This document shows, piece after piece, positions 1 through 18,320 of a DNA stretch of 56,916 nt. The translations under genes and the position numbers were made by a program. The notes under the pieces were generated by a model, which searched no databases, was not told the origin of the DNA, and worked only from the letters and a program-made list of their open reading frames with translations. The DNA is taken from positions 1 to 56,916 of the IMG/VR virus record IMGVR_UViG_3300047553_000257. One strand, given 5' to 3'. Each line of letters opens with the position of its first letter. Position 1 is the first letter of the stretch. This DNA is from a virus. Lineage: Duplodnaviria; Caudoviricetes.

Positions 1-180
1 CCTCCCCCCTCCCCCCTATGCACACAGGCACAGGCAGGGGCATGCCACCTACGATCCGCAGCCGTTTTCCGCTGGGAAAAAGCCCAAGGCCAAGGCAAAA
101 ACCAAAGCCCCAGAAAAAAACCCAAAAAAAACAAAGGGCAAACGACGACAACCTAGTCAGGGTCGTGGTCGGATGGGTAC

Positions 181-660
181 CTATTGCAGCGTATCGCTGT
201 CGTCTTCGTCGCTCATGTCTAGGTTTGCGAGGAAGTCGCCGCCATTGATGGTCTCGATCTGTTTCTTCTCAGGCGCGAAGATACCTTCTACCTTACCCAG
301 TAGCTCGAGAGCGCGGATGCGTGCGGCTGCGGGGCTGTCATCGTCCTTGGCTTCGTCCATGAGCTTCGAGACTATCCAGTCAGCATCGAGCGAGAGCCTC
401 TCCTTCTGCTCCGTCAATGTAGGTACCAGCCTCTTCTGTATCTTCTCCATCTTAAGCAGCTCACACGCCGTCACTCGCGAACCTTTCGGTGCATAACCTG
501 CGGTGATTGCTGCCTGCGAACCGTTGCCACCATTGGCGATGTAGGCGTGGATAAACGCCTGTTGCTTTGGCGTGATGTAGTCAGGGTTCTGGCTAGCCAT
601 GATGCGTGCTTTACCCTCTGGGCTCAGCTCTTTCTCTTTGGTCATTCTATTGATCCTCAT
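181..660 (-). CDS. terS: Terminase small subunit
   Basis: N-terminal HTH signature TPKQQAFIHAYIANGGNGSQAAITAGY...ACELLK and C-terminal ARIRALELLGK, typical of TerS. The true start may be the internal ATG of MTKEKE. Confidence 0.88.
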   Translation of the reverse strand: MRINRMTKEKELSPEGKARIMASQNPDYITPKQQAFIHAYIANGGNGSQAAITAGYAPKGSRVTACELLKMEKIQKRLVPTLTEQKERLSLDADWIVSKLMDEAKDDDSPAAARIRALELLGKVEGIFAPEKKQIETINGGDFLANLDMSDEDDSDTLQ

Positions 661-730
661 TGCAGTCTGTCCTCTCCCTATACAGTCTTATCCCTCTATT
701 GGAAACAAGAGTACGGGATCGCCGCCCTCT

Positions 731-751
731 GGGTTTTTCCGCCGAAATTTT
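731..751 (+). repeat. GGGTTTTTCCGCCGAAATTTT motif, copy 1
   Basis: Near-identical copies at 1101-1123, 1363-1383, 13103-13123 and (reverse) 54103-54125. Confidence 0.75.
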
Positions 752-770
752 GGGGCAGCCATGACGTGTC

Positions 771-799
771 TTGACGCCTTCATCATCCGTCCGTATTGG
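771..799 (+). promoter_or_regulatory. Putative sigma70-type promoter
   Basis: TTGACG-N17-TATTGG upstream of the ORF starting at 826. Confidence 0.45.
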
Positions 800-825
800 C
801 GGCGCGTTCACTACACAAAGGATCA

Positions 826-1047
826 ATGGACATGTACACAAAGAACGAGCCGATCATCGATAAGGTCGCCTCCAACCTCTACCTCATCGATATCAATGAA
901 AAGTCTTTTGAGCTGGGGCGCTGGCCTTACGGACACAAGCGTGGGTCGATCTGGAAAGCCTATGAGGTGACTGACGACGAAGTCCGGTACATCGAGACCT
1001 TCACCACCATGCGGGAAGCTATGACAGCCATGAAGGCTATGGCTTAG
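826..1047 (+). CDS. Hypothetical protein
   Basis: ORF with AAAGGA SD, upstream promoter-like sequence and downstream terminator. Confidence 0.65.
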   Translation: MDMYTKNEPIIDKVASNLYLIDINEKSFELGRWPYGHKRGSIWKAYEVTDDEVRYIETFTTMREAMTAMKAMA

Positions 1048-1073
1048 TCTCTCTCCCCTATATGGGAATTAAC

Positions 1074-1106
1074 GGGGGTCGGCATCGCTGGCCCCTTTTC
1101 TTTTTT
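1074..1106 (+). terminator. Intrinsic terminator
   Basis: GGGGTCGGC-ATC-GCTGGCCCC hairpin followed by a T-run. Confidence 0.65.
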
Positions 1107-1123
1107 CCGCCGAATTTTTGGGG
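1101..1123 (+). repeat. TTTTTCCGCCGAATTTTT motif, copy 2
   Basis: Direct repeat of the 731-751 core. Confidence 0.7.
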
Positions 1124-1362
1124 TGCAATCTAAGCGACCCCACTAGTGTGCTTCACTACTCAGTCGATCAAGCTTTTCACATCGAGAGGCCAGCGGGGTC
1201 TATGCCCTTCGCTTTACTCGCCGTCATCCTCATCGTCAACAGGCTGGGGCTTGCCTGTCCGTTCAGTGATGCACGGCTCGATCTCTTTGAAGGCTGCGTC
1301 TAGCCATCTCTCCAGCTCTTTATCCACTACATGACATCCACATGATGGGGTCGCTGCCTCTT

Positions 1363-1383
1363 GGGTTTTTCCGCCGAAATTTT
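1363..1383 (+). repeat. GGGTTTTTCCGCCGAAATTTT motif, copy 3
   Basis: 21-nt identity to 731-751. Confidence 0.75.
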
Positions 1384-1645
1384 AGGCTAAGTTGATGAGG
1401 GCGAGGCCCACTGTCACCGCTAACCAGATGAAACGCTCAGCCATCTTGATTGCACCAGATTGGTTAGTCGCTGACTTCTCCAGTGACCGCAGCCGCCCTT
1501 CGTGATCGTCGATGGCCTCCCTGTGACCGTGCAACCGTTCATCCACCCGCGACAGCAGCCGCAGCGCATCCGCTATGGATTTCATCTCTTCTTCGATCCG
1601 CCCAAGGCGGTGGTCAATGGCTGGCAAATCCACAATAGGTCTCAC
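1382..1645 (-). CDS. Coiled-coil protein with C-terminal TM helix (XhlA/holin-like)
   Basis: Heptad-rich N-terminus (RLGRIEEEMKSIADAL...HEGRLRSLE) followed by hydrophobic FIWLAVTVGLALINLA. Confidence 0.6.
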   Translation of the reverse strand: MRPIVDLPAIDHRLGRIEEEMKSIADALRLLSRVDERLHGHREAIDDHEGRLRSLEKSATNQSGAIKMAERFIWLAVTVGLALINLA

Positions 1646-1740
1646 TGGTTAATCACTACGATCTCCATATCATCGAGTGACGTTGTACGCGAGTGCAAAG
1701 AAAGTTTTATCGAAACTTTTTCAATACGTTATGGGCCATG

Positions 1741-1805
1741 AAGTAAAAAAACATAAAAAAATGTTTGGGGGTGGGTTGACACATCAAAATACCTTCGTCT
1801 ATTTA
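1741..1805 (+). promoter_or_regulatory. Probable strong early promoter with A-rich UP element
   Basis: TTGACA at 1776-1781, CTATTT/TATTTA at 17/18-nt spacing, A-tracts at 1741-1761; heads the early operon. Confidence 0.6.
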
Positions 1806-1838
1806 CTAGGTCGTCGGCAGCGACACAAAACACTGACC

Positions 1839-1855
1839 CGCTCTTTGACATTGTG
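1839..1855 (+). promoter_or_regulatory. boxA-like (Nus) antitermination element
   Basis: CGCTCTTTGACATTGTG, versus rrn boxA TGCTCTTTAACA and lambda nut boxA CGCTCTTA; about 30 nt after the predicted transcription start. Confidence 0.55.
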
Positions 1856-1947
1856 AAACGCTTGATACCTACGGGGGCTTCTGTCCCCGCTAGGATCATC
1901 ACACCGCAGTCCGCTGCCGTCTGGTGATTTTAGCAAGGAGAAAGTAC

Positions 1948-2169
1948 ATGAAAGACGTAAACATGATCATGGCAGTCGCCAACGCAATGGACGCTGCAGC
2001 AGACGGATATGCCGACGATGAAAAGGTCTTATTCGGCGGAGAGTTCTGGTTCGCTGGTCGGCTGCGGGAAGAGGCAGACGATCTGATCGACGCCAACATC
2101 GAGGAGTGGGCGGACGCTCAGATGGCAGAGATGGTCGAGGCCACTCGCGGCAAAGTCGTAAATTTCTGA
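1948..2169 (+). CDS. Small acidic hypothetical protein (first early gene)
   Basis: AAGGAG SD then ATG at 1948; D/E-rich 73 aa. Confidence 0.75.
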   Translation: MKDVNMIMAVANAMDAAADGYADDEKVLFGGEFWFAGRLREEADDLIDANIEEWADAQMAEMVEATRGKVVNF

Positions 2170-2215
2170 CTTCCCCAGACGGTGGGGTTCTGCTCCACCG
2201 CGAGGATGAATTCAG
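2166..2215 (+). ncRNA. Intergenic structured RNA motif (CC-AGA-C/G-CRA-GG family), copy R1
   Basis: Extended hairpin CTGA-C-TTC-C-CC-AGA-CGGTGG...CCACCG-CGA-GG-AT-GAA-T-TCAG from the stop codon to the next SD; repeated at 2407 and 4110. Confidence 0.65.
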
Positions 2216-2229
2216 CAAGGAGAAAAAAC

Positions 2230-2409
2230 ATGGCATATCTCAGCACCTACGCAGCCTTCGTTCGCTACGGCAACGATGAGCCAGAACAGCGCTGGACTGG
2301 CCTCACCAAGGGACAGGCCAAGTGGCGCTATCACTGGATAAAACGCAACTACTACAGCCGCTTTAGGAGCTTCCGCGAATATGGATGGGAGCGTGAGTGG
2401 CAAGCCTAA
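2230..2409 (+). CDS. Hypothetical protein
   Basis: AAGGAG SD; 59-aa aromatic/basic ORF. Confidence 0.7.
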   Translation: MAYLSTYAAFVRYGNDEPEQRWTGLTKGQAKWRYHWIKRNYYSRFRSFREYGWEREWQA

Positions 2410-2452
2410 CACCACCAGACGGCGGAGCAATCCGCCGCGAGGATGGCGCTAG
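2407..2452 (+). ncRNA. Intergenic structured RNA motif, copy R2
   Basis: CCA-CC-AGA-CGGCGGA-GCAA-TCCGCCG-CGA-GG-A-TGG; same internal loop as R1 with different stems and a GNRA tetraloop. Confidence 0.62.
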
Positions 2453-2475
2453 TGCCAAATACGAAAGGAATATTT

Positions 2476-2862
2476 ATGTCTTTGAATTGGAACGTATCGA
2501 ACATCGCGAACAGCGAAGAAGTCTGCTTCTTTCACTACACAGAGGAGGGTGAGCCTCAGCGCCGACTGACGCAGTCCACCGAAAACTTGATCTTCCTCAC
2601 GATGGTCGTTGGCTTGGGCCGGATCACCGAAAGCAACTACAAAGAGTTCTACAAGCGGATCGCGCTGTTCGAACGCCTTCGAGGTTGTGTGCGGGTCAAG
2701 CGGAGCGACAGCGGCAAGTTCGTTGATGATCCCTACACGCTCGAGGATATCCGCCAGCACATTGGCCTCACCGTTAACGTGTCGGACGAAAAGCCAGACG
2801 CATGGCGTAAACGGATTCTGAAGAGCTGGGAGCATGATCTGGTGACCGAGCGCCACCACTAA
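2476..2862 (+). CDS. Hypothetical protein
   Basis: AAAGGA SD, ATG at 2476, 128 aa. Confidence 0.75.
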   Translation: MSLNWNVSNIANSEEVCFFHYTEEGEPQRRLTQSTENLIFLTMVVGLGRITESNYKEFYKRIALFERLRGCVRVKRSDSGKFVDDPYTLEDIRQHIGLTVNVSDEKPDAWRKRILKSWEHDLVTERHH

Positions 2863-2922
2863 GTCGAAACCCCTTCGGGGGTCCGTTCCAGACTGACCGC
2901 TGGGCGCTGATGAGACAGGTCA
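2863..2922 (+). ncRNA. Type II hammerhead ribozyme HH1
   Basis: GTC-GAAA-CCCC(TTCG)GGGG-TC^ stem I CTGATGA-GAC; predicted cleavage after C2883; pseudoknot TGACC/GGTCA. Confidence 0.92.
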
Positions 2923-2937
2923 TTTAAGGAGACTGAC

Positions 2938-3342
2938 ATGAGAGAAGATCACCACACGTTCGAGCCGCACACTGAGAGCGCAGCAGATCACTTCTGCGAC
3001 CGCTGCTTCAGCTATCACGGCGGGTTTGAGGGCTGCGAAGAAGAAGAGGAAGAAGAAGAGATGATCAGCTTTGAGCAGGTCTCTGCCTCTCTCCCCCTTC
3101 GCGTCGAGGTAAACGGGGAAACCGTCCACAGGGTCACAGCTTGGAAGGTACCACGCGATGCCACTGAGGAGCAGGTGAAAGAGGCGATGCACTACTGGAT
3201 CGAAGCTGAATACTGCCAGCATGAGCATGATTGCTGTGGCTACTACTACGCCGGAACGCCGCAGCTTTTGGGTGGCCGCACCTACTGGGACAACGACACA
3301 GAGGTCGTTTTTGTCCTCCAAACCGACACACTGAACGTCTGA
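2938..3342 (+). CDS. Cys/His-rich hypothetical protein with poly-Glu linker
   Basis: AAGGAG SD; CDRC...H and CQHEHDCCG motifs. Confidence 0.7.
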   Translation: MREDHHTFEPHTESAADHFCDRCFSYHGGFEGCEEEEEEEEMISFEQVSASLPLRVEVNGETVHRVTAWKVPRDATEEQVKEAMHYWIEAEYCQHEHDCCGYYYAGTPQLLGGRTYWDNDTEVVFVLQTDTLNV

Positions 3343-3354
3343 AAGGTACAAAAC

Positions 3355-3522
3355 ATGGCAATCAATTACGGCGATCTTGAATGCAGCCCTTGGCACATCG
3401 CCAGACAGGAAGCTGCGGCAGAAGCTAGGTTCGAACGCTTGATCCGCGAAGACACTGAGCGCGAAGACAGGCTGCGCGAGTACGACATCTGGCAGCAAGA
3501 GATGCGCGACTTGGAAGACTGA
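3355..3522 (+). CDS. Small acidic hypothetical protein (55 aa, not in ORF track)
   Basis: AAAGG SD; MAINYGDLECSPWHIARQE...MRDLED; stop is 2 nt before HH2. Confidence 0.7.
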   Translation: MAINYGDLECSPWHIARQEAAAEARFERLIREDTEREDRLREYDIWQQEMRDLED

Positions 3523-3524
3523 TA

Positions 3525-3584
3525 GTCGAAACCCCTTCGGGGGTCTGGTTGGGACTGACCGCCCACCACTGATGAGACTGGTCA
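3525..3584 (+). ncRNA. Type II hammerhead ribozyme HH2
   Basis: Intact core (GAAA, GTC^ at 3545, CTGATGA at 3569-3575); stem I TGGT(T)GGG/CCCACCA; pseudoknot TGACC/GGTCA. Confidence 0.93.
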
Positions 3585-3597
3585 AATGGAGATCGAA

Positions 3598-3771
3598 ATG
3601 ATTGACGCAATAAAAACATTCTTTGCTGGCTTGGCCGTTCTGGTTGTTGCCAGCCTAATCATCGTCCAGCCCCGCTACATTGGCTATGGCTGCAAGAACG
3701 CAAATGTTCCGCTGCTCGCTAAGTACGAAAGCGACTTCCCCGCATGCTCGCGGATCGAACCAATTTTCTAA
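3598..3771 (+). CDS. Small membrane-anchored protein
   Basis: GGAG SD; N-terminal hydrophobic helix and two Cys. Confidence 0.65.
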   Translation: MIDAIKTFFAGLAVLVVASLIIVQPRYIGYGCKNANVPLLAKYESDFPACSRIEPIF

Positions 3772-3783
3772 GGGAGAGTACCA

Positions 3784-4113
3784 ATGACACAAGTTACCGA
3801 TCTTGACCGCTTCGCCACCAAGGGCGAGGCCGCAGTAGTGAAACGTCTAGTCCGCATCGTCCTCGAGCGCGGGTACATGGTCAGCATCAATGACGGCGAA
3901 GAGTGGACTGTTACCCTGAGCACTAACCGCAACGAAATCCTGTCCGCCCTCGCAACCACTGGCGAGGACATCCTCCGCCTTTACAAGGACGGCGAACGGG
4001 CTGGATCGCTCTGGCTGGTCTACGGCAATGCTGAGGACGGCAGCGAGCTGATCGCGGATCACAGTGACAACGATGCATGCCACAGCATCTGCTGGGAGCT
4101 GTACCCCGACTGA
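3784..4113 (+). CDS. Hypothetical phage protein
   Basis: GGGAG SD; 109 aa. Confidence 0.75.
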   Translation: MTQVTDLDRFATKGEAAVVKRLVRIVLERGYMVSINDGEEWTVTLSTNRNEILSALATTGEDILRLYKDGERAGSLWLVYGNAEDGSELIADHSDNDACHSICWELYPD

Positions 4114-4160
4114 CTTCCCCAGACTGCGGTTCTTCGGAGCCGCAGCAAGGACGAATTCAG
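4110..4160 (+). ncRNA. Intergenic structured RNA motif, copy R3
   Basis: CTGACTTCCCCAGAC-[TGCGGTTC(TTCG)GAGCCGCA]-GCAAGGACGAATTCAG; flanks nearly identical to R1, inner stem completely different. Confidence 0.65.
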
Positions 4161-4175
4161 CAAAGGAGAAAGTAA

Positions 4176-4370
4176 ATGGAACGATTTGAGGTTACTGCCC
4201 ACTACGCAACTTGGAGCGGCCACCACGCATCCTGTAGGCGCATCGTTGAGGCAGAAGATGCGGGACAGGCGCTCGACATCGTTGCTGGTCGGGTAAAGAG
4301 CTGGAAGCGGTACATGGGCAAGCTCGACTTGGACTGCATACAACTACGCGAAGGGAATGAAAATGACTGA
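4176..4370 (+). CDS. Hypothetical protein
   Basis: AAGGAG SD; 64 aa. Confidence 0.7.
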   Translation: MERFEVTAHYATWSGHHASCRRIVEAEDAGQALDIVAGRVKSWKRYMGKLDLDCIQLREGNEND

Positions 4371-4548
4371 AGAGAAACTGGATGACTACACCGCCGTCAT
4401 GATCGCTGAGGGCGTCGAAGATGCGGACTATGACCGCACCGTCGAAGCTTGGCAGTACCTGCATGACACTGGCCTTGCCTACCGCCTCCAAGGCTGGTTT
4501 GGCCGCACCGCACAGTCGCTGATCGATCAAGGGATCATTGGCGAATAG
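4357..4548 (+). CDS. Small phage protein (LQGWFGRTA motif)
   Basis: Coupled to the upstream ORF; stop TAG overlaps HH3. Confidence 0.75.
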   Translation: MKMTEEKLDDYTAVMIAEGVEDADYDRTVEAWQYLHDTGLAYRLQGWFGRTAQSLIDQGIIGE

Positions 4549-4607
4549 TCGAAACGCCTTCGGGCGTCTGCGAAGGGGTGGCCTCCCCGCACTGATGAGA
4601 CAGGCCA
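4548..4607 (+). ncRNA. Type II hammerhead ribozyme HH3
   Basis: Stem III covaried (CGCC-TTCG-GGCG); GTC^ at 4568; CTGATGA-GAC; pseudoknot TGGCCT/AGGCCA. Confidence 0.93.
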
Positions 4608-4624
4608 TGTAAGGAAAAAGAATA

Positions 4625-5002
4625 ATGAAGATCGTATCTATTACTTTTCAAGAAACAACCCGTTTCGTATCGAAGCCATACGCCTACCTCACCGACATCG
4701 ACGATATCAGTGTCGGCGATACCGTTGTCGTGGACTCTCCGCATAACGGCTTCGCATGCGTGAAGGTCGTCAGTATTGAGGAAAACGCTGAGCGGATCGA
4801 GAAGGCATACAAGTGGATCGTCTGCAGGGTCGATACGAAATCGTATGTCGAGCGTTTGGAGCGCGAAGAAAGGCGTCAGACCGTTATCGCTAAGCTCAAG
4901 AAGCTCGAACGGCACGTCCTCGAAGAAGATCGTTTCGCGATGCTGGCTAAGCACAGCCCAGAGGCATCTGCCCTACTCGAGGAGCTCAAGACGCTTAAGT
5001 AG
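4625..5002 (+). CDS. Hypothetical phage protein
   Basis: AAGGA SD; KPYAYLTD...VGDTVVV beta-rich N-terminus and helical C-terminus. Confidence 0.78.
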   Translation: MKIVSITFQETTRFVSKPYAYLTDIDDISVGDTVVVDSPHNGFACVKVVSIEENAERIEKAYKWIVCRVDTKSYVERLEREERRQTVIAKLKKLERHVLEEDRFAMLAKHSPEASALLEELKTLK

Positions 5003-5060
5003 TCGAAACCCCTTCGGGGGTCTGGCGAGGGTTGCCTCCCGCCACTGATGAGACAGGCAA
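5002..5060 (+). ncRNA. Type II hammerhead ribozyme HH4
   Basis: Intact core; GTC^ at 5022; stem I TGGCG(A)GG/CCCGCCA; pseudoknot TTGCCT/AGGCAA directly before the AGGAG SD. Confidence 0.93.
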
Positions 5061-5072
5061 AGGAGACTGAAA

Positions 5073-5369
5073 ATGAAAATTTCAACCGCACCTTGGCTTT
5101 TAGAGGTTAAGCCAACAAAGGACGGAACGAGCCTTCGGGTTATCGACCAAGACCACCGTGTCTTGGCTCTAATGAAGGGCAGCGGTCGGGAAAAGCTGGC
5201 TAACGCCTATCTGATGGCGGCTGCCCCCGAAATGCTCAAAGCGCTCGACCATGTACTGAGATTTAATCGGCGCAGTGAGGCATTAAATGAAAACGGCAAC
5301 CTGCACCCGTTTCTCATTAATGAGATCGATCAGGTAATCAACAAAGCAAAAGGGAAAGCCAATGACTGA
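5073..5369 (+). CDS. Hypothetical phage protein (ANAxLxAAAPEML motif)
   Basis: AGGAG SD; motif common in small phage early proteins. Confidence 0.75.
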   Translation: MKISTAPWLLEVKPTKDGTSLRVIDQDHRVLALMKGSGREKLANAYLMAAAPEMLKALDHVLRFNRRSEALNENGNLHPFLINEIDQVINKAKGKAND

Positions 5370-5615
5370 AGGACAACTACACCTAGCAATCCGCTGCGGC
5401 ATCTTCGCGATCATCGTGATCGCCGCCAACCTCTACGCATGACATGCAGTGGCGCGTGATCCTCATGGCGGATGGCAAGAGCGCTGTCCGCCACGTTAAA
5501 GCCATCAGTGCTGCACTCGCGAGATGGACAGCTATCAGCGATTACAAACTGGAAACCGGACTCGATGCCACTGTGGGACACATGGTGCGCACCAGCCGCT
5601 AATGTATTTATATGC

Positions 5616-5644
5616 TTGACGCATAAAACGAGCGTCATTAAGAG
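5616..5644 (+). promoter_or_regulatory. Putative promoter for ardC with overlapping inverted repeat
   Basis: TTGACG-N17-TAAGAG; TGACGC...GCGTCA palindrome. Confidence 0.45.
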
Positions 5645-5666
5645 CATTTATAGAAGGGAATCGATT

Positions 5667-6536
5667 ATGAAACAGGACGTTTACGAAACGGTCACCAACA
5701 AGGTGCTCGAGATGATGGAAACACATGGCGCGAACTGGATCAACCCGTTCGCTCGCAAGGGCAAGGCGCTTCTGCCGCACAACATCATCAGCAAGAAACC
5801 ATACCGTGGGATCAACCACCTCATGCTGCTCTGGTCGCCTTACGAAACGCCTGCTTGGGGAACCTTCAAGCAGTGGAACGATCAGGGCTGCTCAGTCCGT
5901 AAGGGCGAGAAGTCCACGCCAATCGTTTTCTGGCAGTTTATCGAGAAGGAAGACGACAAGGGGCAGAAGATCACTATTCCGTTCCTTCGTCAGTACCATG
6001 CATTCAACGTAGCTCAGGTGGAGGGTGATTTTGCTGAGCGTCTGTTGACCTGTACAGATACTGGTACAGGTGCAGAAGAGATCGCGGTGGCTGAGGATTT
6101 TTTCCGCCAAATCCCTGCGGAGGTACACCACACGTCCACTGGTCGTGCGTACTACAACCCCATGAAAGACTTCATCAGCATGCCAGCCAAGGACGTGTTC
6201 GAAGACACGCCGACAAGCAGCGCTACTGAATGCTACTACAGCACCCTGTCGCATGAGCTGACGCACTGGACTGGACACCCAGACCGTCTGGATCGTCTCG
6301 AGAAGTCTCGCTTCGGTGATGAGACCTATGCGCGTGAAGAGCTGGTCGCTGAGATCGGTGCTGCACTGCTTTGCGCTCACCTCGAGATCAGCGCGACCCC
6401 TCGCCCAGATCATGCCCAATACCTCAACGGCTGGATGAAGGCGCTGTCCGACCACAAGAAGGAATTCGTGTCAGCAGCGGCGGCTGCATCTAAGGCCGTC
6501 GATTTCGTTATTGAAGCAGCAGGAAAGGAAGCCTAA
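5667..6536 (+). CDS. ardC: ArdC-family antirestriction protein (ssDNA-binding domain plus zincin-like metallopeptidase)
   Basis: YETVTNKVL...W..PF, PYRGIN, WGTFKQW, VRKGEK, AYYNP..DFISMP, YYSTLSHELTHWTG..RLDR, YAREELVAEIGAA; likely start is ATG 5667. Confidence 0.92.
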   Translation: MKQDVYETVTNKVLEMMETHGANWINPFARKGKALLPHNIISKKPYRGINHLMLLWSPYETPAWGTFKQWNDQGCSVRKGEKSTPIVFWQFIEKEDDKGQKITIPFLRQYHAFNVAQVEGDFAERLLTCTDTGTGAEEIAVAEDFFRQIPAEVHHTSTGRAYYNPMKDFISMPAKDVFEDTPTSSATECYYSTLSHELTHWTGHPDRLDRLEKSRFGDETYAREELVAEIGAALLCAHLEISATPRPDHAQYLNGWMKALSDHKKEFVSAAAAASKAVDFVIEAAGKEA

Positions 6537-6931
6537 TGATTACCAGAATAACACCGCACAAAAGCAAGTTGCGCATCTCATCAGACAGCGTCTGGCCCCT
6601 ACGCAGTGCAACGGGGCAGACCTTCGCTGAGAAACAGAGGGACACGTTGAAAGGAAAGACCGTGACACTGAATGACCATGTCATCGCCGCCATAAGATCA
6701 CTTGAGGCCGCAAACGATATCAGATCCGCGCATGCGCACCTGCCCTACCGCGAGCAGCCACAGGTTCATGACGAACTACTGATCCAATTGCTGGAGGCGA
6801 TGATTGCCTTCGACGAAGAGCCGCAAGGCACGATAGAAGAGCTGACCCGCGAGGATGAGCAGTACATAACCCGCTTCCCCTTACCCAACGATGCTGAGTG
6901 GGATTACGCAGTCGCCATAGGTGCAGCATGA
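6536..6931 (+). CDS. Hypothetical protein
   Basis: Coupled TAATG overlap with ardC. Confidence 0.65.
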   Translation: MITRITPHKSKLRISSDSVWPLRSATGQTFAEKQRDTLKGKTVTLNDHVIAAIRSLEAANDIRSAHAHLPYREQPQVHDELLIQLLEAMIAFDEEPQGTIEELTREDEQYITRFPLPNDAEWDYAVAIGAA

Positions 6932-7058
6932 GCGACTACCTAAAGCTACTCGCCAAGAACGTGCCGCCAATGCCCGAAGAGCATCTGCTCAAGCTGAATT
7001 CAGAACAGCTACGGGCTTACGAGAAGTCACGCAATGAACGATCAAAGGAACAAAGCAA

Positions 7059-7499
7059 ATGACAGATGATAGATACGGAAAAATCCACACAGACGGGAGC
7101 CGCTCCGGTGGTCAGCCGTTAAACGATAGCATTGAAGCAAAAGCCTTGGCGCTGGTGAATGAGGTGCTGGCGGAGCGGGGCGTTCTCTACTATGAACTTG
7201 AATACGTTAGCGCCTTCCACACGCAAGAAGCACTATGCCGCGCCATCGAACAGCACGAAGCCTTCCGCCAAGAGGTGAGCGATGCGGTGGTGGAATATAA
7301 AGCGGACCAGCCTTACGTTTGGAAGCAAAGTGTGTCTGATTACTTTTGTCGCTTCATCATTTCCAAGCCTAAGCCTGACCCGCTGGTGGAGGTGTTGGAC
7401 GAAATAACATGGACAGGTGCCTACACCACGCCTTTTGCCGTCCGTATCCGCGCCGCACTGGAAGCGCGTGGGCTGGAGATACGGGAGAAGGGGCGGTGA
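7059..7499 (+). CDS. Hypothetical phage protein
   Basis: AAGGA SD; 146 aa. Confidence 0.7.
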   Translation: MTDDRYGKIHTDGSRSGGQPLNDSIEAKALALVNEVLAERGVLYYELEYVSAFHTQEALCRAIEQHEAFRQEVSDAVVEYKADQPYVWKQSVSDYFCRFIISKPKPDPLVEVLDEITWTGAYTTPFAVRIRAALEARGLEIREKGR

Positions 7500-7687
7500 C
7501 GCCAAATGAAATCACAATCGCCGTATTTTTCGGGATGTTATATTTCGCGTCGGTATATGTTGTGTGTCTGTCGTATATATTGAGCAACACCGACGATTGG
7601 GTTGACGCATTTTGGTGGCCCATCCATTTGGTAAAAGCCCTGACGAAATCGTTGCTACGGGCTTTGTTTACGGGGTGGCGGTTATGA
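7496..7687 (+). CDS. Small membrane protein
   Basis: GTGA overlap start; hydrophobic ITIAVFFGMLYFASVYVVCL. Confidence 0.6.
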   Translation: MTPNEITIAVFFGMLYFASVYVVCLSYILSNTDDWVDAFWWPIHLVKALTKSLLRALFTGWRL

Positions 7688-7761
7688 CCCTGCGCCAATT
7701 CCTGTTCGATAATTTCGGCTGGGATATTTACGACTGGGCCGACGATGAGATTAGATTTTAA
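7684..7761 (+). CDS. 25-aa micro-protein, copy 1 (MTLRQFLFDNFGWDIYDWADDEIRF)
   Basis: ATGA overlap; paralog at 8470-8547 with mostly synonymous changes. Confidence 0.75.
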   Translation: MTLRQFLFDNFGWDIYDWADDEIRF

Positions 7762-7772
7762 GGAGAAATTAA

Positions 7773-7982
7773 ATGACGAGAGGCCCAGCATCCGAATGGC
7801 AGTCAGGTTATAACGCTGGCATAGAAGCCGCCATCAATGCGTTGGAAGCCGACGCCAAGCTATGCGATTGCGCTGCACTTGAAGAGCGCGAGTGCGCTTG
7901 CGGGGCGTGGGCTGATTACAAGAACATAACGTCAGCAAGGGCTGTGGAGATTGTCCGTGCAGTAAAGGATCAAAAAGCATGA
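7773..7982 (+). CDS. Hypothetical protein with CxC motifs
   Basis: AAGGAG SD; N-terminus shared with the 8075 ORF. Confidence 0.7.
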   Translation: MTRGPASEWQSGYNAGIEAAINALEADAKLCDCAALEERECACGAWADYKNITSARAVEIVRAVKDQKA

Positions 7983-8074
7983 AGCGTTACACAATTAGCA
8001 AGGGCAAGGCGTCCAAGTGTCGCATTGTTGAAGGCGTTAAATTTGTCACCAGACTAGTATAAGGAACAAGGAAA

Positions 8075-8287
8075 ATGACAGACCCAGCATCCGAATGGCA
8101 GTCAGGTTATGACGCCGCCATTGATTCATGCATCGCTGCGATTGAAAAACAAAAGGCAAGCTTTGCATCTGAGCAATACGCTGTTGGTCAGCCACTGTCT
8201 TCGTTTCAAGAGCGGTTCGCTTGCGATCAATGCATCGATGCAATCGCAGCATTAAAGAAACCTGTTAAAGAAACGCCGTTTTCTTAA
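8075..8287 (+). CDS. Hypothetical protein
   Basis: AAGGA SD; PASEWQSGY N-terminus shared with the 7773 ORF. Confidence 0.7.
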   Translation: MTDPASEWQSGYDAAIDSCIAAIEKQKASFASEQYAVGQPLSSFQERFACDQCIDAIAALKKPVKETPFS

Positions 8288-8302
8288 CATGAAGGAAAGC
8301 CA

Positions 8303-8473
8303 ATGACTGAAAGCTACCGACTACTACAAGACGGACTGCCAGTAGCGTGGGTGGAAGGACGCAATGCCGTTGCCGAGATCGCTCACTACGCCGCTGTATA
8401 TGCCCAAGACGGGCCGGTTGTAATCCAGCACAAGGTCAACGGACGCTGGAAAGAATGGAAGGAAAACAAATGA
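8303..8473 (+). CDS. Hypothetical protein (56 aa, not in ORF track)
   Basis: AAGGA SD; MTESYRLLQDGLPVAWVEG...WKEWKENK; ATGA overlap with the next ORF. Confidence 0.65.
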   Translation: MTESYRLLQDGLPVAWVEGRNAVAEIAHYAAVYAQDGPVVIQHKVNGRWKEWKENK

Positions 8474-8547
8474 CCTTGCGTCAATTCCTCTTTGACAACT
8501 TCGGATGGGACATTTACGAGTGGTCGCCAGACGAAATTAGATTTTAA
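8470..8547 (+). CDS. 25-aa micro-protein, copy 2 (MTLRQFLFDNFGWDIYEWSPDEIRF)
   Basis: 22/25 aa identical to 7684-7761. Confidence 0.75.
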   Translation: MTLRQFLFDNFGWDIYEWSPDEIRF

Positions 8548-8582
8548 GAATACCCCACCCCAACTCCTTTTAATCTCGACAA

Positions 8583-8684
8583 CTACGGCGGGATCGACGG
8601 CTAGACAGCGGAAGTATCAAACACCTTTGGGATGGGGGGACATATTCGGGGTGTGAATGTCTAGCAACGTAGCAATTTTCGATC
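8583..8684 (+). ncRNA. Candidate structured RNA upstream of nrdJ
   Basis: Nested stems CTACG/CGTAG, GCTAGACA/TGTCTAGC and ACACC/GGTGT, plus a possible pseudoknot GATCGA/TCGATC. Confidence 0.45.
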
Positions 8685-8823
8685 AGCGGCGAACATAAAA
8701 AGAACAGCCGCAACTCTCTCTAAACACACAACTATTTTTTTCAACTGATGCAAACACATTAGTTGAAGCAACACTGCTTTAGCCGTATGGCTGAGGGTTC
8801 CACCTATGTAATGGAGAATTACA

Positions 8824-10761
8824 ATGCAACTACCGACTGACTACCAATCCTATATTCACAAGTCCCGTTACGCACGTTTCATTGACGAGAAAGGTCGTCG
8901 CGAACATTGGGATGAAACCGTCTCAAGATACTTCGACTTCTTCGAGGAAGAGCTTGAAACCCACAACGGACACAAGGTTTCCGCTGGTCTGCGCAGTGAG
9001 CTCGAGGACGCTGTCCTAAGTCTCGCCGTCATGCCATCCATGCGTGCGCTGATGACCGCAGGAGAGGCTCTGAAGCGCGAGAGCGTTGCTGGCTACAACT
9101 GTAGCTATCTACCCATAGATCGGCCCAAGGCGTTCGCTGAGGCGCTCTACGTTCTCATGTGCGGTACAGGCGTTGGCTTCTCTGTCGAGCGTCAAGAGAT
9201 CAGCAAGCTACCCGTTGTGCCTGAGCACTTCGACCGCACTGCATTCGACGTTATTGTGGGTGACAGTAAGCTTGGTTGGGCAGAGGCGTACCACACGCTA
9301 CTGACGTGCCTATACGCTGGCACTATTCCTAATGTGGACTACAGCCAGATTCGTCCTGCAGGTGAGCGCCTTCGCGTCTTCGGTGGTCGTGCGTCTGGCC
9401 CAGATCCTTTGCGTGACCTGTTCGAGTTCACGATCCGCACCATGCGCAATGCTGCTGGCCGTAAGCTGAACAGTCTCGAGGTACATGAGATCGTCTGCAA
9501 GATCGGTGAGATCGTGGTGGTTGGTGGTGTCCGCCGCTCCGCTGAGATCAGCCTTTCGAATCTGTCCGACCAGCGCATGCGTGACGCCAAGTCTGGCAAC
9601 TGGTGGATGGACAAACCATACCTTGCGCTAGCCAACAACTCCGCTGCCTATACAGAAAAGCCAGAGGTTGGTCAGTTCATGGATGAATGGTCTGCTTTGT
9701 ACCGCTCGAGATCTGGTGAGCGTGGCATCTTCAATCGTGAGGGAGCCATCAATAAGATCCTGCGTCTTGGTCGTCGTGACCACCGCTATGACTTTGGCAC
9801 TAACCCGTGCGGCGAGATCGTGCTGCGTCCTCGTGGCTTCTGCAACTTGACCGAAGCTGTGGTGCGTGAGAACGACAGCCTTGGTGACCTTAAAGAGAAG
9901 GTGCGTCTCGCATCAATCCTTGGAACTTGGCAGTCTACCCTCACCCGCTTCAACTTCATCGAGCCAGAGTGGCGTCGCAATGCAGAAGAAGAGCGCTTGC
10001 TTGGCGTGTCCCTCACCGGCATCTATGACAACCCACTGATGCGTGGTGACAACGGTCTTGATCGTTTGGGTACGGCACTGGAGAAGCTGAAGGCGACCGC
10101 CATTAAGGCTAACCGTCTCGAGGCTCACGACATTGGGATCAACCCATCTGTCGCCGTTACTACCGTCAAGCCATCCGGCACTGTGTCTCAGTTGGTGAAT
10201 AGCCCCAGCGGAATCCACCAAGGGCATGCGCAGTACTACATCCGTCGCGTCACTGGTGACAACAAGGATCCAATCACCGCCTTCATGGGTGATGCTGGCA
10301 TTCCTAACGAGCCGCACGCTTCCAAGCCTCAAGGCATGACGGTCTTCGCCTTTCCGGTGAAGCTTGGCGAGGGTACTACCACTCGCGATGACGTGACTGC
10401 ATTGCAGCACCTCGAGCTTGTTCGCGCCTACAACACGCATTGGTCTGAGCACGCCGTGTCTTGCACCATCAGCGTGAAAGAGAATGAATGGCCGACTGTG
10501 GGTGGCTGGGTCTTCGATCACTTCGATGACATCTGTGGCCTGTCGTTCCTGCCTCACTTCGAGGGTGATAGTTCGTACACGCAGATGCCTTACGAGACGA
10601 TCACTAAGGCTGAGTACGAGCAACGTCTCGCTGCAATGCCGAAGGAGATTGATTGGGCTGGCCTCGCCTTCTATGAGAAGGGTATCGACACAGTTACTGG
10701 CACACGCGAACTAGCGTGCGTTGGTAACACCTGCGAGATCGTAGACGCACAGTCTCTATAA
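8824..10761 (+). CDS. nrdJ: Class II (adenosylcobalamin-dependent) ribonucleotide reductase
   Basis: YNCS, LMCGTGVGFS, GGVRRSA, TNPCGEI, CNLTE, TVKPSGTVSQL and C-terminal CxxxxC redox tail; no nrdB present. Confidence 0.95.
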   Translation: MQLPTDYQSYIHKSRYARFIDEKGRREHWDETVSRYFDFFEEELETHNGHKVSAGLRSELEDAVLSLAVMPSMRALMTAGEALKRESVAGYNCSYLPIDRPKAFAEALYVLMCGTGVGFSVERQEISKLPVVPEHFDRTAFDVIVGDSKLGWAEAYHTLLTCLYAGTIPNVDYSQIRPAGERLRVFGGRASGPDPLRDLFEFTIRTMRNAAGRKLNSLEVHEIVCKIGEIVVVGGVRRSAEISLSNLSDQRMRDAKSGNWWMDKPYLALANNSAAYTEKPEVGQFMDEWSALYRSRSGERGIFNREGAINKILRLGRRDHRYDFGTNPCGEIVLRPRGFCNLTEAVVRENDSLGDLKEKVRLASILGTWQSTLTRFNFIEPEWRRNAEEERLLGVSLTGIYDNPLMRGDNGLDRLGTALEKLKATAIKANRLEAHDIGINPSVAVTTVKPSGTVSQLVNSPSGIHQGHAQYYIRRVTGDNKDPITAFMGDAGIPNEPHASKPQGMTVFAFPVKLGEGTTTRDDVTALQHLELVRAYNTHWSEHAVSCTISVKENEWPTVGGWVFDHFDDICGLSFLPHFEGDSSYTQMPYETITKAEYEQRLAAMPKEIDWAGLAFYEKGIDTVTGTRELACVGNTCEIVDAQSL

Positions 10762-10767
10762 CAACAA

Positions 10768-10787
10768 GGAGGGGCTTCGGCCCCTCC
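10768..10787 (+). terminator. Stem-loop after nrdJ
   Basis: GGAGGGGC-TTCG-GCCCCTCC; no U-tract, so it may be a stability or pause hairpin. Confidence 0.4.
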
Positions 10788-10804
10788 AATACAAGGAAGT
10801 ATGT

Positions 10805-11095
10805 ATGTTACTAGGTGAAATTAAAGCAGAAGCTCTTCGGATGTGGGACATATGCGAGAGGGATCTGATAGGCGATAATCGATTCGTCGAGATGACGCGC
10901 CCTCGCATGGCTTTGTACAAGACCTATCGGGATCGGGGCATGTCCCTGTCACAGATCGGTCGGTACTTGAAGCGCGACCACTCCACTGTCTTGAGTGGCT
11001 TGCGCAGGATCGAAATCGAAATGGCGAAAGACCCGACCTACAAAGAGCAGGTCGAGTCCCTCGTGTCATTTTCTATGAATGATCTTAAACTCTGA
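10805..11095 (+). CDS. DnaA domain IV-like HTH protein
   Basis: RPR...MSLSQIGRYLKRDHSTVLSGLRRIE matches the DnaA C-terminal signature S...IG..F..RDHTTV. Confidence 0.8.
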   Translation: MLLGEIKAEALRMWDICERDLIGDNRFVEMTRPRMALYKTYRDRGMSLSQIGRYLKRDHSTVLSGLRRIEIEMAKDPTYKEQVESLVSFSMNDLKL

Positions 11096-11527
11096 TATCG
11101 GAACCTCAATCATAGGTTCCTTATCCTCCCAGTCCCCGCGCTTTGTTGTTCCACCGAACACGATATTGATGGGGGCTGGGACATTAATATAACCAACGCA
11201 GTCCTGCCACTCCACGATGAGCATCGATCTGATGCCTGTGTCTCGAGATAGCGACAGCAGGTTCATGTATTTGTGCAGCGAGACTTGATAGGTGGGGTAC
11301 GTGTGTATCGGATTTCCCCGCGACTTGAGCTCAGCCCACGACATGATCTCTTTCCCACGCAGCAGCGCAAAGTCCGCTGAGTAGCGGCGCGGAAGCTTTA
11401 CAACCTCCACACCCCATTTGTCCGCCACCACAGTGATGACGGCACGTTCATTGGCTAGTGTCTTTTCATTCTCATAGATCAACGGATCGTCTTTCTCTGC
11501 TCTTTCCAAAGGGATAAAACTAAGCAC
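11066..11527 (-). CDS. Putative PD-(D/E)XK-fold protein
   Basis: YSADFAL...WAELKSR pattern; the start may be TTG near 11482. Confidence 0.55.
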   Translation of the reverse strand: MLSFIPLERAEKDDPLIYENEKTLANERAVITVVADKWGVEVVKLPRRYSADFALLRGKEIMSWAELKSRGNPIHTYPTYQVSLHKYMNLLSLSRDTGIRSMLIVEWQDCVGYINVPAPINIVFGGTTKRGDWEDKEPMIEVPISEFKIIHRK

Positions 11528-11787
11528 TCCACTAGTGAACGCGACCAGATAGGATCAGCATCAAGCGGTATGTCGTCGATAGCCGCTCGCCGTAGCTCTT
11601 TAGTAGGTATCTGAAATATGCGTGCCGCAAGGCAACCCACCATGTGATCTCTGACCAGAGCGCGGAAGTTTTCCGGAACCGACTCTTCAATCCACTGCAT
11701 TCTTTTTTCATGCGTTTCACCTTTTGCTGCCTGCTCTGCCCAAACCATCGACTGCAAACGAGTCGTCTTTGGTCCAGACTTCTTCAC
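11479..11787 (-). CDS. Hypothetical protein
   Basis: Coupled in operon (GTGA overlap). Confidence 0.65.
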   Translation of the reverse strand: MKKSGPKTTRLQSMVWAEQAAKGETHEKRMQWIEESVPENFRALVRDHMVGCLAARIFQIPTKELRRAAIDDIPLDADPIWSRSLVECLVLSLWKEQRKTIR

Positions 11788-12089
11788 TGCATAAGTTCCA
11801 GCAGCGTCGTGAGAGGAATGACGGCCACAGACTTTTCATTGTCGGCGCGTAGGATCAAGCCAGCATTATCGCCCAGTGCCTCGAGCATCCAAGCTGGCAG
11901 CTCCTTCCTGCGCTTGGCCTCAAACACCCAAGGCTTGTCGCTGAATGTCGGTGTGATCTCGACATCCCCTTTCGCGTAGCTAGTCGCTCCAGACAACGGC
12001 ACGCGCTGCGCCACTAGGCCGTACTCTTTGGCTTGGTTAACGAGCTCGCGCTCGTACACCGCACCCTTGGTTCTCGACATCTTTCCCAT
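11784..12089 (-). CDS. Holliday junction resolvase (Hjc-like PD-(D/E)XK)
   Basis: SRTKGAVYERE...RVPLSGA...GDV...FEAKRR. Confidence 0.8.
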   Translation of the reverse strand: MGKMSRTKGAVYERELVNQAKEYGLVAQRVPLSGATSYAKGDVEITPTFSDKPWVFEAKRRKELPAWMLEALGDNAGLILRADNEKSVAVIPLTTLLELMQ

Positions 12090-12680: not shown

Positions 12681-13622
12681 TCAAATCCCCTCATCCTTGA
12701 TCGTGTAGTGGTGCGGGTTACGGTCACCGTAGATCTCGACGTTCTTCGCCGCCAGCTCGTTGAGCTGATCATAGAAGTTGGCACTGCGCGGGGGGCGATC
12801 ATCCTCACACTTGCCTTGGATCATTGCGTCACGCAGCACGACCAGCGAGCAGATTGCTTTGGTTACGTGGCTGAGCTGAGAGTCCGGATCAGTGTCTTCA
12901 CCTTCCCACCAACTAAACAGGTGGCGGATCGTTGCGTCGTAATAGACCGATGCCCTTACGCCTACACCGCGATAGTTGTGGCGACCGTACTTTAGTGCGC
13001 CTTCGAGCATCCCTACTCCTACCTCAGCTAGTACTGCTGCTGATACGGTGGACAGGGGAGCTTTCTTTATACCGACAGCGTCCTTCGGGTTCGTTGGCTT
13101 CTGGGTTTTTTCCGCCGATTTTTCACCGACTGTGGCACCGATAGTGGCACCGACGGTTATCGTTCTTCCACCGACGATTATCGGAAACGTATCGCCGTCC
13201 ATCTCTTGAGCATACCGCCAGTAAATGATGTCGCCATCTAAACCAGAGTGCTTCCAGTAAAGCTTCGACGCAGCTCTTTCCATAAGCGCGTTCCCTCCAC
13301 GCAGAACAACATCTACTAAGCCAGATGGTCGCCACTCCCCCTTCTTCGCACCATTCCACGCCGTCCAATTGGAGCTTGGCTCTTTGACGGAACGCCACGC
13401 AATAATGCTGGTATCCGATAAGCCATTGCCCCAAAAGAACGAACGAACATCACCCTCTTTTTTCTCGCCATTGCCATACAGCACCTCAACATTGCCCAAA
13501 AACGGACTTTCTGGTGCGGCTGTGTTCCAGCCATGAGGCACACACACATCCCAATCCTCTATAAGGTTGCCGTACATGTACGTGCGCTCGTTAGCCTTCA
13601 TTATTTTGTGATAATCATCCAT
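12681..13622 (-). CDS. dATP/dGTP diphosphohydrolase (DUF5664-like) with N-terminal tandem repeat domains
   Basis: NPKDAVGIKKAPL...GALKYGRHNYR...YYDATIRHL..WWEGEDTDPDSQLSH. Confidence 0.82.
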   Translation of the reverse strand: MDDYHKIMKANERTYMYGNLIEDWDVCVPHGWNTAAPESPFLGNVEVLYGNGEKKEGDVRSFFWGNGLSDTSIIAWRSVKEPSSNWTAWNGAKKGEWRPSGLVDVVLRGGNALMERAASKLYWKHSGLDGDIIYWRYAQEMDGDTFPIIVGGRTITVGATIGATVGEKSAEKTQKPTNPKDAVGIKKAPLSTVSAAVLAEVGVGMLEGALKYGRHNYRGVGVRASVYYDATIRHLFSWWEGEDTDPDSQLSHVTKAICSLVVLRDAMIQGKCEDDRPPRSANFYDQLNELAAKNVEIYGDRNPHHYTIKDEGI

Positions 13623-17348: not shown

Positions 17349-18209
17349 TCAGTAGCTCCGTTCGCTCTTACCGTTCACTGCTTGATCCAGTGCTTCGATC
17401 TCTGCCTTCATCGCCTTAAGCGAATCCCACAGCGCTTGATTGTCCTTCTCTCGCCGACATCTATCGAGAAGCATTTCTTTCTTGTAGCGAAGATCTTCTA
17501 GCTTCTCGCGTGCCTGCTTGAAAGACATGCCAGCCATTGGGTTTGTCATTGCGCTTGGCTTGCGGAAGCTGCGCCGTACCCAGTTGCGCCACGTAGCAAG
17601 CCAGTCGGTCTTCACACCCTTCGCTCCGCCGACAGCAATCCAGTAGTCGCGGAACTCATTAGCAGTCGCCGACACATCACTATCCGACCATCCCTTGTCC
17701 GCCTTCGCGAACTCTCGCCATTCCTCTGGAAGAACCCAATCAGCAGGTAGGCGCGTCCCACGCGCTATACCTTTCTTTTCTTCTTTCCCTTCTTTCCCTT
17801 CTTTCCCTTCTTCTGTAGTGGGTTGAGGCTGGGTTAGATCTGGGTTAGTTGTGGGTTGTTCACTGGGTTGCTCAGTGGGGGCGCAACCCTGAAAACGACT
17901 GTATTTACAGATGTTTAGCTGGGTTACCCCACGGGTTGGTACGCGGGTTATCTTTTGGTCCCGCTCGAGTTGCTTCAGAAACGTGCGAACACGCTGTCTC
18001 TCCCACTTCCATGTGTCGGCGAGCGAGCGTTCGGACAGCATTACCTGTCCGCGCTGCACGAAGAAGCGCTCACCGTTGAACCATTGATAATGATCTTCGA
18101 AAGCGGCCTCGTGGATTAACCACTCCCATGCCGCACGCTTACAGAAAGCCTCGTTGCGAAATAGATCATCGTCCATCCAGCCGCGATGCATCTTGTACCA
18201 ACCACTCAT
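17349..18209 (-). CDS. Phage replication initiator (wHTH N-terminus, DnaT-like C-terminal domain)
   Basis: MSGWYKMHR...RGQ...SLADTWKW..RVRTFLK; RGTRLPADW...EFRDYW...KTDWLATWRNWVR. Confidence 0.8.
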   Translation of the reverse strand: MSGWYKMHRGWMDDDLFRNEAFCKRAAWEWLIHEAAFEDHYQWFNGERFFVQRGQVMLSERSLADTWKWERQRVRTFLKQLERDQKITRVPTRGVTQLNICKYSRFQGCAPTEQPSEQPTTNPDLTQPQPTTEEGKEGKEGKEEKKGIARGTRLPADWVLPEEWREFAKADKGWSDSDVSATANEFRDYWIAVGGAKGVKTDWLATWRNWVRRSFRKPSAMTNPMAGMSFKQAREKLEDLRYKKEMLLDRCRREKDNQALWDSLKAMKAEIEALDQAVNGKSERSY

Positions 18210-18320
18210 AAAAATTCCTTTCGAACCTGTTTCGTTTGCCTAATACGACGGCAGGCCACGCGAAGGTTGAAAGGGTTTCGCAAGGCAAACATGGCTTTTC
18301 GGGAGCTACCCTAGCCGTCG
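18207..18320 (-). ncRNA. Candidate cis-regulatory leader RNA of the replication initiator
   Basis: Multi-stem core plus two potential pseudoknots, one covering the AAAGGA SD. Confidence 0.55.

Follow-up and report, generated by a model that had tools for sequence, protein, structure and literature searches.

Clustered type II hammerhead ribozyme motifs in the gene gaps of a phage operon and their possible part in messenger RNA self-processing

Introduction

Pseudoknotted type II hammerhead ribozymes clustered around changing prophage genes were described by Perreault et al. in 2011, and passages of that paper (PMC3088659) note anti-restriction genes nearby and propose the processing of long phage transcripts. 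We analyzed IMG/VR virus record IMGVR_UViG_3300047553_000257, whose entire sequence of 56,916 bases (CheckV 100% complete) is called the window here, and found four hammerheads of this kind between positions 2863 and 5060. They occupy gaps within a series of small + strand open reading frames (ORFs) that extends from about 1900 to 10770, and thus share the features of the clustered hammerheads: several on the coding strand of a phage genome, between genes, flanking single genes or short gene blocks. We put the probability at roughly 60%, for the whole statement with function included, that these are functional ribozymes in the gaps of an early transcript that would cut a polycistronic mRNA into hairpin-ended pieces.

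According to the same passages, a type II hammerhead with a pseudoknot reached a cleavage rate above 1.2 per min in 0.5 mM Mg2+; this activity was lost in pseudoknot mutants and recovered in compensatory ones (PMC3088659). In vitro, prophage transcripts with several ribozymes were cleaved at each of their sites, and the triple of A. tumefaciens was cleaved in E. coli as well. This triple, which surrounds ardA, and the C. scindens and A. caulinodans tandems resemble the window in that ribozymes on one strand flank variable genes or blocks. The anti-restriction gene nearby is ardA in A. tumefaciens and an ArdC-like gene (5472-6536) in the window.

Compared with the Rfam type II hammerheads (RF02276), the window motifs have the same core, the same circular permutation that leaves stem II open, a short stem II, a pseudoknot of at least four pairs formed by the nucleotides just past stem II, and a phage or prophage setting, whereas the window subtype is distinguished by a fixed 5-bp stem III, a UUCG loop, and a stem II that is mostly GUC/GAC. 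Three type II hammerheads of D. vulgaris cleave in vivo according to the cyPhyRNA-seq passages of PMC8782182. They too lie beside phage-like and hypothetical genes, with two of them about 300 nt apart, but they are chromosomal, belong to a cultured bacterium, and have had cleavage shown both in vivo and in vitro, whereas cleavage in the window is predicted. Hundreds of bacterial and phage hammerheads are known, and passages of a 2019 review call their roles largely elusive, in agreement with an earlier sequence-only reading of this DNA that had described the biological role as largely unresolved.

Two further systems offer functional likenesses. In phage T7, early mRNA is cut between cistrons by RNase III, giving gene-length mRNAs with protective hairpin ends; this host enzyme leaves 5'-phosphate and 3'-hydroxyl ends. 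The window RNA would also be cut between cistrons, but by itself, leaving 5'-hydroxyl and cyclic-phosphate ends, so that the likeness is one of function and not of kinship. RiboJ, a hammerhead-derived insulator, is a hammerhead just upstream of a ribosome site that removes the upstream context and leaves a 5' terminal hairpin; passages of PMC6206723 report that expression rises and becomes context-independent, with transcript about 2-fold up and protein 2- to 10-fold up in E. coli. RiboJ is an engineered part, made by adding a hairpin to a ribozyme of a plant satellite RNA, and follows a promoter, whereas the phage elements are natural, type II, and intergenic.

Hammerhead motifs in the window

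The exact pattern matched four times in the window, all on the + strand (2863-2916, 3525-3578, 4548-4601, and 5002-5054), and not once in any of 100 dinucleotide-preserving shuffles. At all four sites the parts follow in the order GTC, GAAA, stem III with a TTCG loop, GTC, stem I, CTGATGA, and GAC, with a 5-bp stem III, a stem I hairpin of 22-23 nt, and an open 3-bp stem II. The core (C3 U4 G5 A6 N7 G8 A9, G12 A13 A14, the A15.1-U16.1 pair, and H17 as the cleavage-site base) is complete in four of four copies, as are the core-adjacent pairs G10.1-C11.1 and A15.1-T16.1, and the N1.1-N2.1 pairs are C2884-G2906, T3546-A3568, T4569-A4591, and T5023-A5044. These features are the acceptance rules given in passages of Perreault et al. 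2011 (PMC3088659). Rfam alignments and the part order show the type II topology, in which stems I and III are closed by loops and stem II opens to the flanks. The tertiary contact, a pseudoknot of at least four pairs between loop I and the 3' tail, comprises 5, 5, 6, and 6 pairs.

Hammerhead 1 (2863-2922, type II, + strand) consists of the stem II 3' strand (2863-2865), GAAA (2866-2869), stem III with its TTCG loop (2869-2882), stem I (2884-2906), CTGATGA (2907-2913), and the stem II 5' strand (2914-2916), with predicted cleavage after C2883 and a pseudoknot of five pairs (2894-2898 with 2918-2922, TGACC/GGTCA). Hammerhead 2 (3525-3584, + strand) has stem I at 3546-3568, CTGATGA at 3569-3575, GAC at 3576-3578, predicted cleavage after C3545, and again a TGACC/GGTCA pseudoknot of five pairs (3556-3560 with 3580-3584); its stem II can be extended to 4 bp through A3524-T3579. 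For hammerhead 3 (4548-4607, + strand), with stem I at 4569-4591, cleavage is predicted after C4568 and the pseudoknot has six pairs (4579-4584 with 4602-4607, TGGCCT/AGGCCA). Hammerhead 4 (5002-5060, + strand) has stem I at 5023-5044, predicted cleavage after C5022, and a pseudoknot of six pairs (5032-5037 with 5055-5060, TTGCCT/AGGCAA) that adjoins AGGAG at 5061.

Helices differ between the copies in a compensatory manner. Stem III is CCCC/GGGG in three copies and the compensated CGCC/GGCG in the copy at 4548, and stem I has a different sequence in each. The sequence-only reading had claimed four intact pseudoknotted type II hammerheads with such changes in stem III, stem I, and the pseudoknot, and all of this was borne out. 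Its cut positions coincide with the C of the second GTC, 20 nt past the first G, and the 0-3 nt that it gave between the pseudoknot 3' strand and the following Shine-Dalgarno site agree with distances of 3, 3, 3, and 0 nt to a site of the AGGAG/GGAG/AGGAA type. The four motifs are almost certainly true hammerheads.

Relatives and covariation

A scan with the exact pattern gave a family set of 82 IMG/VR loci, and a covariance model built from 12 copies (R1) found 145 matches in the window and these loci together; within the window it returned just the four described, and the R1 and Rfam scans of the rest of the window revealed no additional hammerhead and no other ribozyme family. Hammerhead 1 belonged to the R1 seed, so that its R1 score of 75.3 bits is self-inclusive. 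The exact pattern had no match in species-representative bacterial and archaeal genomes.

Among 115 distinct rows, 93.4% of cells paired, compared with 70.4% after shuffling and 28-50% in slid-partner controls, and two-sided changes occurred in 19 of 21 pairs. Each of the four helices covaries strongly. The pseudoknot, which lies outside the search model, was paired in 83.7% of cells and showed two-sided changes in 6/6 pairs. In a test independent of alignment columns, the longest complement between loop I and tail averaged 4.71 nt, compared with 2.98 +/- 0.09 nt when tails were permuted, and pseudoknots of at least four pairs were present in 88 of 104 family members.

Copies from the same source were all on one strand (83/83 sources), and 36 of 83 sources held at least two copies, with a median spacing of 607 nt. 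The densest arrays are in two related IMG/VR contigs, with nine hammerheads in 3.4 kb (L071:10000-13416, - strand) and seven in 2.5 kb (L047:9828-12351, + strand), between which the cassette order is not the same. The cultured Streptomyces phage Tefunt (NC_054665.1; L088, W01) has eight model matches on the - strand within 5.5 kb (about 43.5-49.0 kb); the sole one inspected (43506-43570) is intergenic in the annotation, and similar BLAST matches were found in phages Nishikigoi and Diane. Arrays of nine (L071), eight (Tefunt), and seven (L047) copies, and of four in the window, compare with three in the tested 2011 cases. The motifs, their placement, their covariation, and the architecture of the family are established.

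Placement between stop codon and ribosome site

Each hammerhead in the window fills one gene gap, with the stop codon of the preceding gene on one side and the Shine-Dalgarno site of the following gene on the other. In hammerheads 3 and 4 the G of the upstream TAG stop is itself the first base of stem II, and in hammerheads 1 and 2 the gap is 0 or 2 nt. The same fit recurs in the family: of 119 distinct copies, 97 have an upstream ORF of at least 40 codons whose stop lies -1 to +3 nt from the ribozyme. Grouping the copies by their upstream flank left 100 cases, 80 of which show this fit, compared with 6/298 control anchors. The stop codon overlaps or abuts the first stem II base in 65 of the 119. 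Downstream, 103 of 118 copies are followed at 7-55 nt by a ribosome site together with the start of an ORF of at least 30 codons, and the ribosome site lies a median of 5 nt past the pseudoknot (at most 10 nt in 64/86).

The genes that follow are small and diverse, with 101 distinct proteins (median 91 aa), nearly all without a known family. No gene content was enriched beside the ribozymes: no PHROG family had more than two members among the 101 downstream proteins, and the commonest Pfam family, DUF932, had three.

The sequence-only reading had also suggested that folding may tune translation. Its premise held, in that the Shine-Dalgarno site is close to the pseudoknot, but the predicted probability that the ribosome site is unpaired was much the same in uncleaved RNA and 3' product (0.65/0.64, 0.42/0.44, 0.54/0.60, and 0.31/0.21; nested folds only, with the start coordinate of hammerhead 2 shifted by one), and tuning of translation was dropped.

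The tight spacing also bears on a converse reading, in which a ribosome terminating at the abutting stop codon, or a 30S subunit at the nearby ribosome site, unfolds the ribozyme, so that the fraction cut, and with it the balance of polycistronic and monocistronic mRNA, would track translation. The stop codon contact in 65 of 119 distinct copies and the short distance to the ribosome site would suit such conditional cleavage, and passages of Perreault et al. (PMC3088659) raise the regulated cutting of phage hammerheads. Genome compaction, however, explains the spacing equally well; the predicted accessibility is the same before and after cleavage, no ligand-binding or switch element is visible, and related ribozymes cut almost completely during in vitro transcription in the passages cited (PMC3088659). 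We therefore regard conditional cleavage as unlikely.

Proposed self-processing of the transcript

For self-processing, we envisage that each ribozyme would fold while emerging from the polymerase, with the pseudoknot between loop I and the 3' tail keeping stems I and II side by side, and that the RNA would then cut itself past the C of the second GUC. Both products would end in hairpins, because stems III and I are closed hairpins flanking the cut. The upstream piece would carry its stop codon and a 21-nt tail that ends in the stem III hairpin (with a UUCG loop) and bears a terminal 2',3'-cyclic phosphate; the downstream piece would begin with a 5'-hydroxyl on the first paired base of the stem I hairpin, with the ribosome-binding site a few nucleotides behind. 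Only the 3-bp stem II would link the two pieces, which would therefore separate. The outcome would be mRNAs of one, two, and four genes whose stability and translation would be independent of their neighbors. Cleavage in the window phage, the fate of the ends, and the benefit are what we infer here from the sequence.

Several points weigh against this reading. With a gathering score of 37 bits for RF02276 (Hammerhead_II), hammerheads 4 (5001-5062, 47.3 bits) and 3 (4547-4609, 43.8 bits) passed, but hammerheads 1 (2862-2924, 31.5 bits, E value 0.0037 in a 12-kb search) and 2 (3524-3586, 29.2 bits, E value 0.014) fell short, so that the Rfam check proposed by the sequence-only reading succeeded for two copies and not for the other two; the shortfall arises from stem I bulges and not from the core. 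Nested minimum free energy (MFE) folding of the four 63-nt RNAs, which is blind to the pseudoknot, gave no signal (z = +0.89, +0.28, +0.10, and -0.14), and the three-way junction was the MFE structure for the copy at 3525 only. The pattern used to collect the loci fixed stem II and the stem III loop, so that the constancy of both parts in the family is by construction, and, since related phages share orthologues, many of the 119 copies do not count as independent events. The scan of positions 1-11500 did not identify the operon promoter.

The Rfam scores of two copies and MFE folding no better than that of shuffles are also what would be expected if the motifs were inactive relics or chance matches. 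Against this stand the absence of the pattern from 100 of 100 shuffles, four intact cores, and compensatory changes in three helices, both among the four copies and across 115 relatives. We consider relics or chance matches extremely improbable.

Read data add little in either direction. Seven sequencing runs, with shares of at most 0.12, provided contigs only; one run is on record as RNA and most are probably DNA. Contigs of four of the runs (X1-X4) were placed on the window. Contigs bridge predicted cuts (X3 record 14 over 2883 and X1 record 6 over 4568), which counts against cleavage at face value but decides nothing because their libraries may be DNA. The RNA run X2 had no piece over the predicted cut sites; given its patchy cover, and because RNA ends are not visible in contigs, this run is uninformative either way. 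Whether the new ends would stabilize or destabilize the products depends on the RNase set of the host. A 5'-hydroxyl can reportedly destabilize RNA in RNase J1 hosts, as for glmS.

The same predicted ends could be put to another use, in which the excised RNAs would be re-joined, circular or spliced, by the reverse reaction on a hybrid ribozyme or by a host ligase of the RtcB type. The core and stem II are common to the four copies, so that excised ends could rebuild a full ribozyme, and the end chemistry suits RtcB. The ends would, however, be held weakly by the 3-bp stem II, and no RNA ligase or end-healing gene was present among the ORFs scanned. Circular or spliced products were sought and not found in the work described in the passages of Perreault et al. 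(PMC3088659). Re-joining is therefore very unlikely, and separation into hairpin-ended mRNAs is the fate of the pieces that we favor.

Cassette breakpoints at the ribozymes

Comparison with relatives revealed that genes between hammerheads are gained and lost as exact units. In some relatives, the 662-bp unit between the starts of hammerheads 1 and 2 (cassette A) is exactly what is missing, and its place is taken by one hybrid ribozyme; a contig of the independent run X1 joins 2861 to 3524 over 22 shared letters. Others lack exactly the 454-bp unit from hammerhead 3 to hammerhead 4 (cassette B), with one hybrid ribozyme left; this cassette is present in L011 and absent in L037, L014, L073, L057, and L029, the last three of which share the same coordinates. 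In a second, unrelated lineage, L071 and L047 have two cassettes in swapped order, and eight of nine block ends are no more than 25 nt away from the edge of a ribozyme. In two phage lineages, therefore, ribozymes coincide with breakpoints of cassette gain, loss, and shuffling. This pattern may be a by-product of repeats in a recombinase-bearing phage, or it may help to explain the persistence of the arrays.

Taken to its limit, this pattern would mean that the main selected role is at the DNA level, with the ribozyme repeat, about 22 nt of which are identical at the 5' end, serving as a portable joint for homologous recombination of gene cassettes, and with RNA cleavage secondary or only keeping cassettes expressible anywhere. 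The exact missing units with hybrid ribozymes at the empty sites, the 22-letter join, the swapped cassettes with their block ends, and the 101 diverse downstream proteins all fit such a joint, and the phage encodes Sak, YqaJ, a RecA-dependent nuclease, and PDDEXK nucleases. A joint would need neither a catalytic core nor covarying stems nor a pseudoknot, yet all of these are maintained, and recombination is expected at any repeat as a by-product. BLAST block ends may gravitate to ribozymes as the most conserved stretches, and short exact repeats can mislead metagenome assemblers, although the same empty sites appear in contigs of several samples. A DNA joint as the main selected role accordingly seems improbable to us.

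A combined reading is somewhat more plausible, although we advance it only tentatively: hammerhead arrays may form a ribozyme-bounded gene-cassette system in phage early regions, in which a 60-nt element has both RNA and DNA jobs and the unit comprises stem I, ribosome site, gene or genes, stop codon, and stem III. At the RNA level, each unit would be cut free with a hairpin at each end and would be expressed in the same way wherever the gene lands. At the DNA level, the conserved halves would provide homology for phage recombinases adding, dropping, or reordering units.

Operon and genome context

Upstream of hammerhead 1, a gene at 2443-2862 (+ strand, 139 aa, no PHROG match) ends in a TAA stop at 2862 that abuts the ribozyme; an in-frame ATG at 2476 has a better ribosome site and may be the true start. 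Cassette A, between hammerheads 1 and 2 (2938-3522, + strand), holds genes at 2938-3342 (134 aa) and 3355-3522 (55 aa). The block between hammerheads 2 and 3 (3586-4548, + strand) holds four genes (3586 or 3598-3771, 3784-4113, 4176-4370, and 4357-4548). Cassette B, between hammerheads 3 and 4 (4625-5002, + strand), is a single gene of 125 aa assigned to phrog_3489, of unknown function. Downstream of hammerhead 4 is a gene at 5073-5369 (+ strand, 98 aa, phrog_1273, function unknown) that is variably present in relatives.

The next gene in the operon is the ArdC-like anti-restriction gene (5472-6536, + strand), with an ArdC N-terminal domain and a zincin-like peptidase. Its MPTase-PolyVal peptidase domain is related to domains of a 3,256-aa polyvalent protein (22079-31849, - strand), which has ART-PolyVal (ADP-ribosyltransferase) and LPD38 domains. 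Within small early ORFs on the + strand, repeats of 70-79 nt with about 80% identity pair 7684-7762 with 8470-8548 and 7778-7847 with 8077-8146, which suggests duplicated small genes.

A second intercistronic element occurs at three places on the + strand of the operon: an interrupted hairpin of about 19 pairs at 2166-2218, a shorter hairpin with a GCAA loop at 2406-2445, and a hairpin with a TTCG loop at 4110-4163. It begins at the stop codon of the preceding gene and ends shortly ahead of the ribosome site, its flanks are conserved and its central stem covaries, and it was found in close relatives of the window phage only. The three interrupted hairpins resemble the RNase III sites of T7, and the element is a possible RNase III-type processing site; three long hairpins at other junctions would fit an operon processed at most of its junctions. 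As ribozymes cluster, a known ribozyme class was also considered for the element, but the only match in a permissive Rfam scan over 2150-2480 was to freshwater-2 at 17 bits, which is attributable to the ribosome-site tail, and this candidate was rejected.

Terminator-like sites in positions 1-11500 numbered 8, compared with 10.9 in shuffles, and promoter-like sites 4, compared with 6.9; no site of either kind inside the operon was convincing, which would suit a single transcript across the four hammerheads. Ahead of the early operon, beside the gene for the small terminase subunit, a 40-nt repeat occurs three times (715-754, 1083-1122, and 1347-1386, + strand), each copy with a GC-rich hairpin, a T-run, and a conserved tail; two of the three were also called terminator-like.

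The window encodes small and large terminase subunits, portal, an internal virion protein, and tail fiber proteins, as well as a T7-like primase-helicase, ribonucleotide reductase, Sak and YqaJ recombination proteins, and a tyrosine integrase, together with the RecA-dependent nuclease and PDDEXK nucleases. This gene content indicates that the phage is probably temperate and tailed. The small terminase subunit (181-660, - strand) lies at the left end of the record and the large subunit (TerL; 51367-52953, - strand) toward the opposite end, so that the late operon crosses the record ends and the genome is circularly permuted or was cut arbitrarily. The best match of TerL in a cultured phage was Roseobacter phage CRP-7 (35% identity); the single match among genome contigs (61% identity) was a 7.5-kb contig of a Flavobacteriales metagenome-assembled genome, too short for a host call. 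A megablast search of positions 1-12000 against cultured phages gave no match.

Elsewhere in the window, an ORF at 12681-13622 (- strand) has an N-terminal domain of dATP/dGTP diphosphohydrolases (PF18909), which may point to editing of the nucleotide pool or to modified bases in the DNA. A match to the int-alpA RNA family (18233-18321, - strand), located upstream of an ORF at 17349-18209, scored 32.2 bits, below the gathering score of 35.8.

Discussion

The window adds no new kind of ribozyme. Clustered prophage hammerheads were published in 2011, and the arrangement is a known one because passages of that paper (PMC3088659) already describe the clustering, the gene context, and the idea of processing. 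A search of the open-access literature found no quantification of the distance from stop codon to ribosome site, no arrays of 7-9 copies, and no breakpoint pattern, although the supplements of the 2011 paper may bear on these, and likewise no paper on hammerheads as recombination joints, on stop-codon fusion, or on Streptomyces phage arrays.

What the window and the 82 loci provide is a sharply defined and testable architecture, in which a stop codon is fused to the first base of the ribozyme, the predicted cut leaves hairpins, the ribosome site follows a few bases on, arrays reach nine units, and cassette breakpoints fall on ribozymes. Tefunt is cultured and has eight matches in 5.5 kb, so that the ideas of processing and insulation are testable in a real infection. 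If the insulator reading is true, the elements would be ready-made natural parts for operon building, and the cassette system, if true, would explain why bacterial and phage hammerheads lie beside ever-changing small genes.

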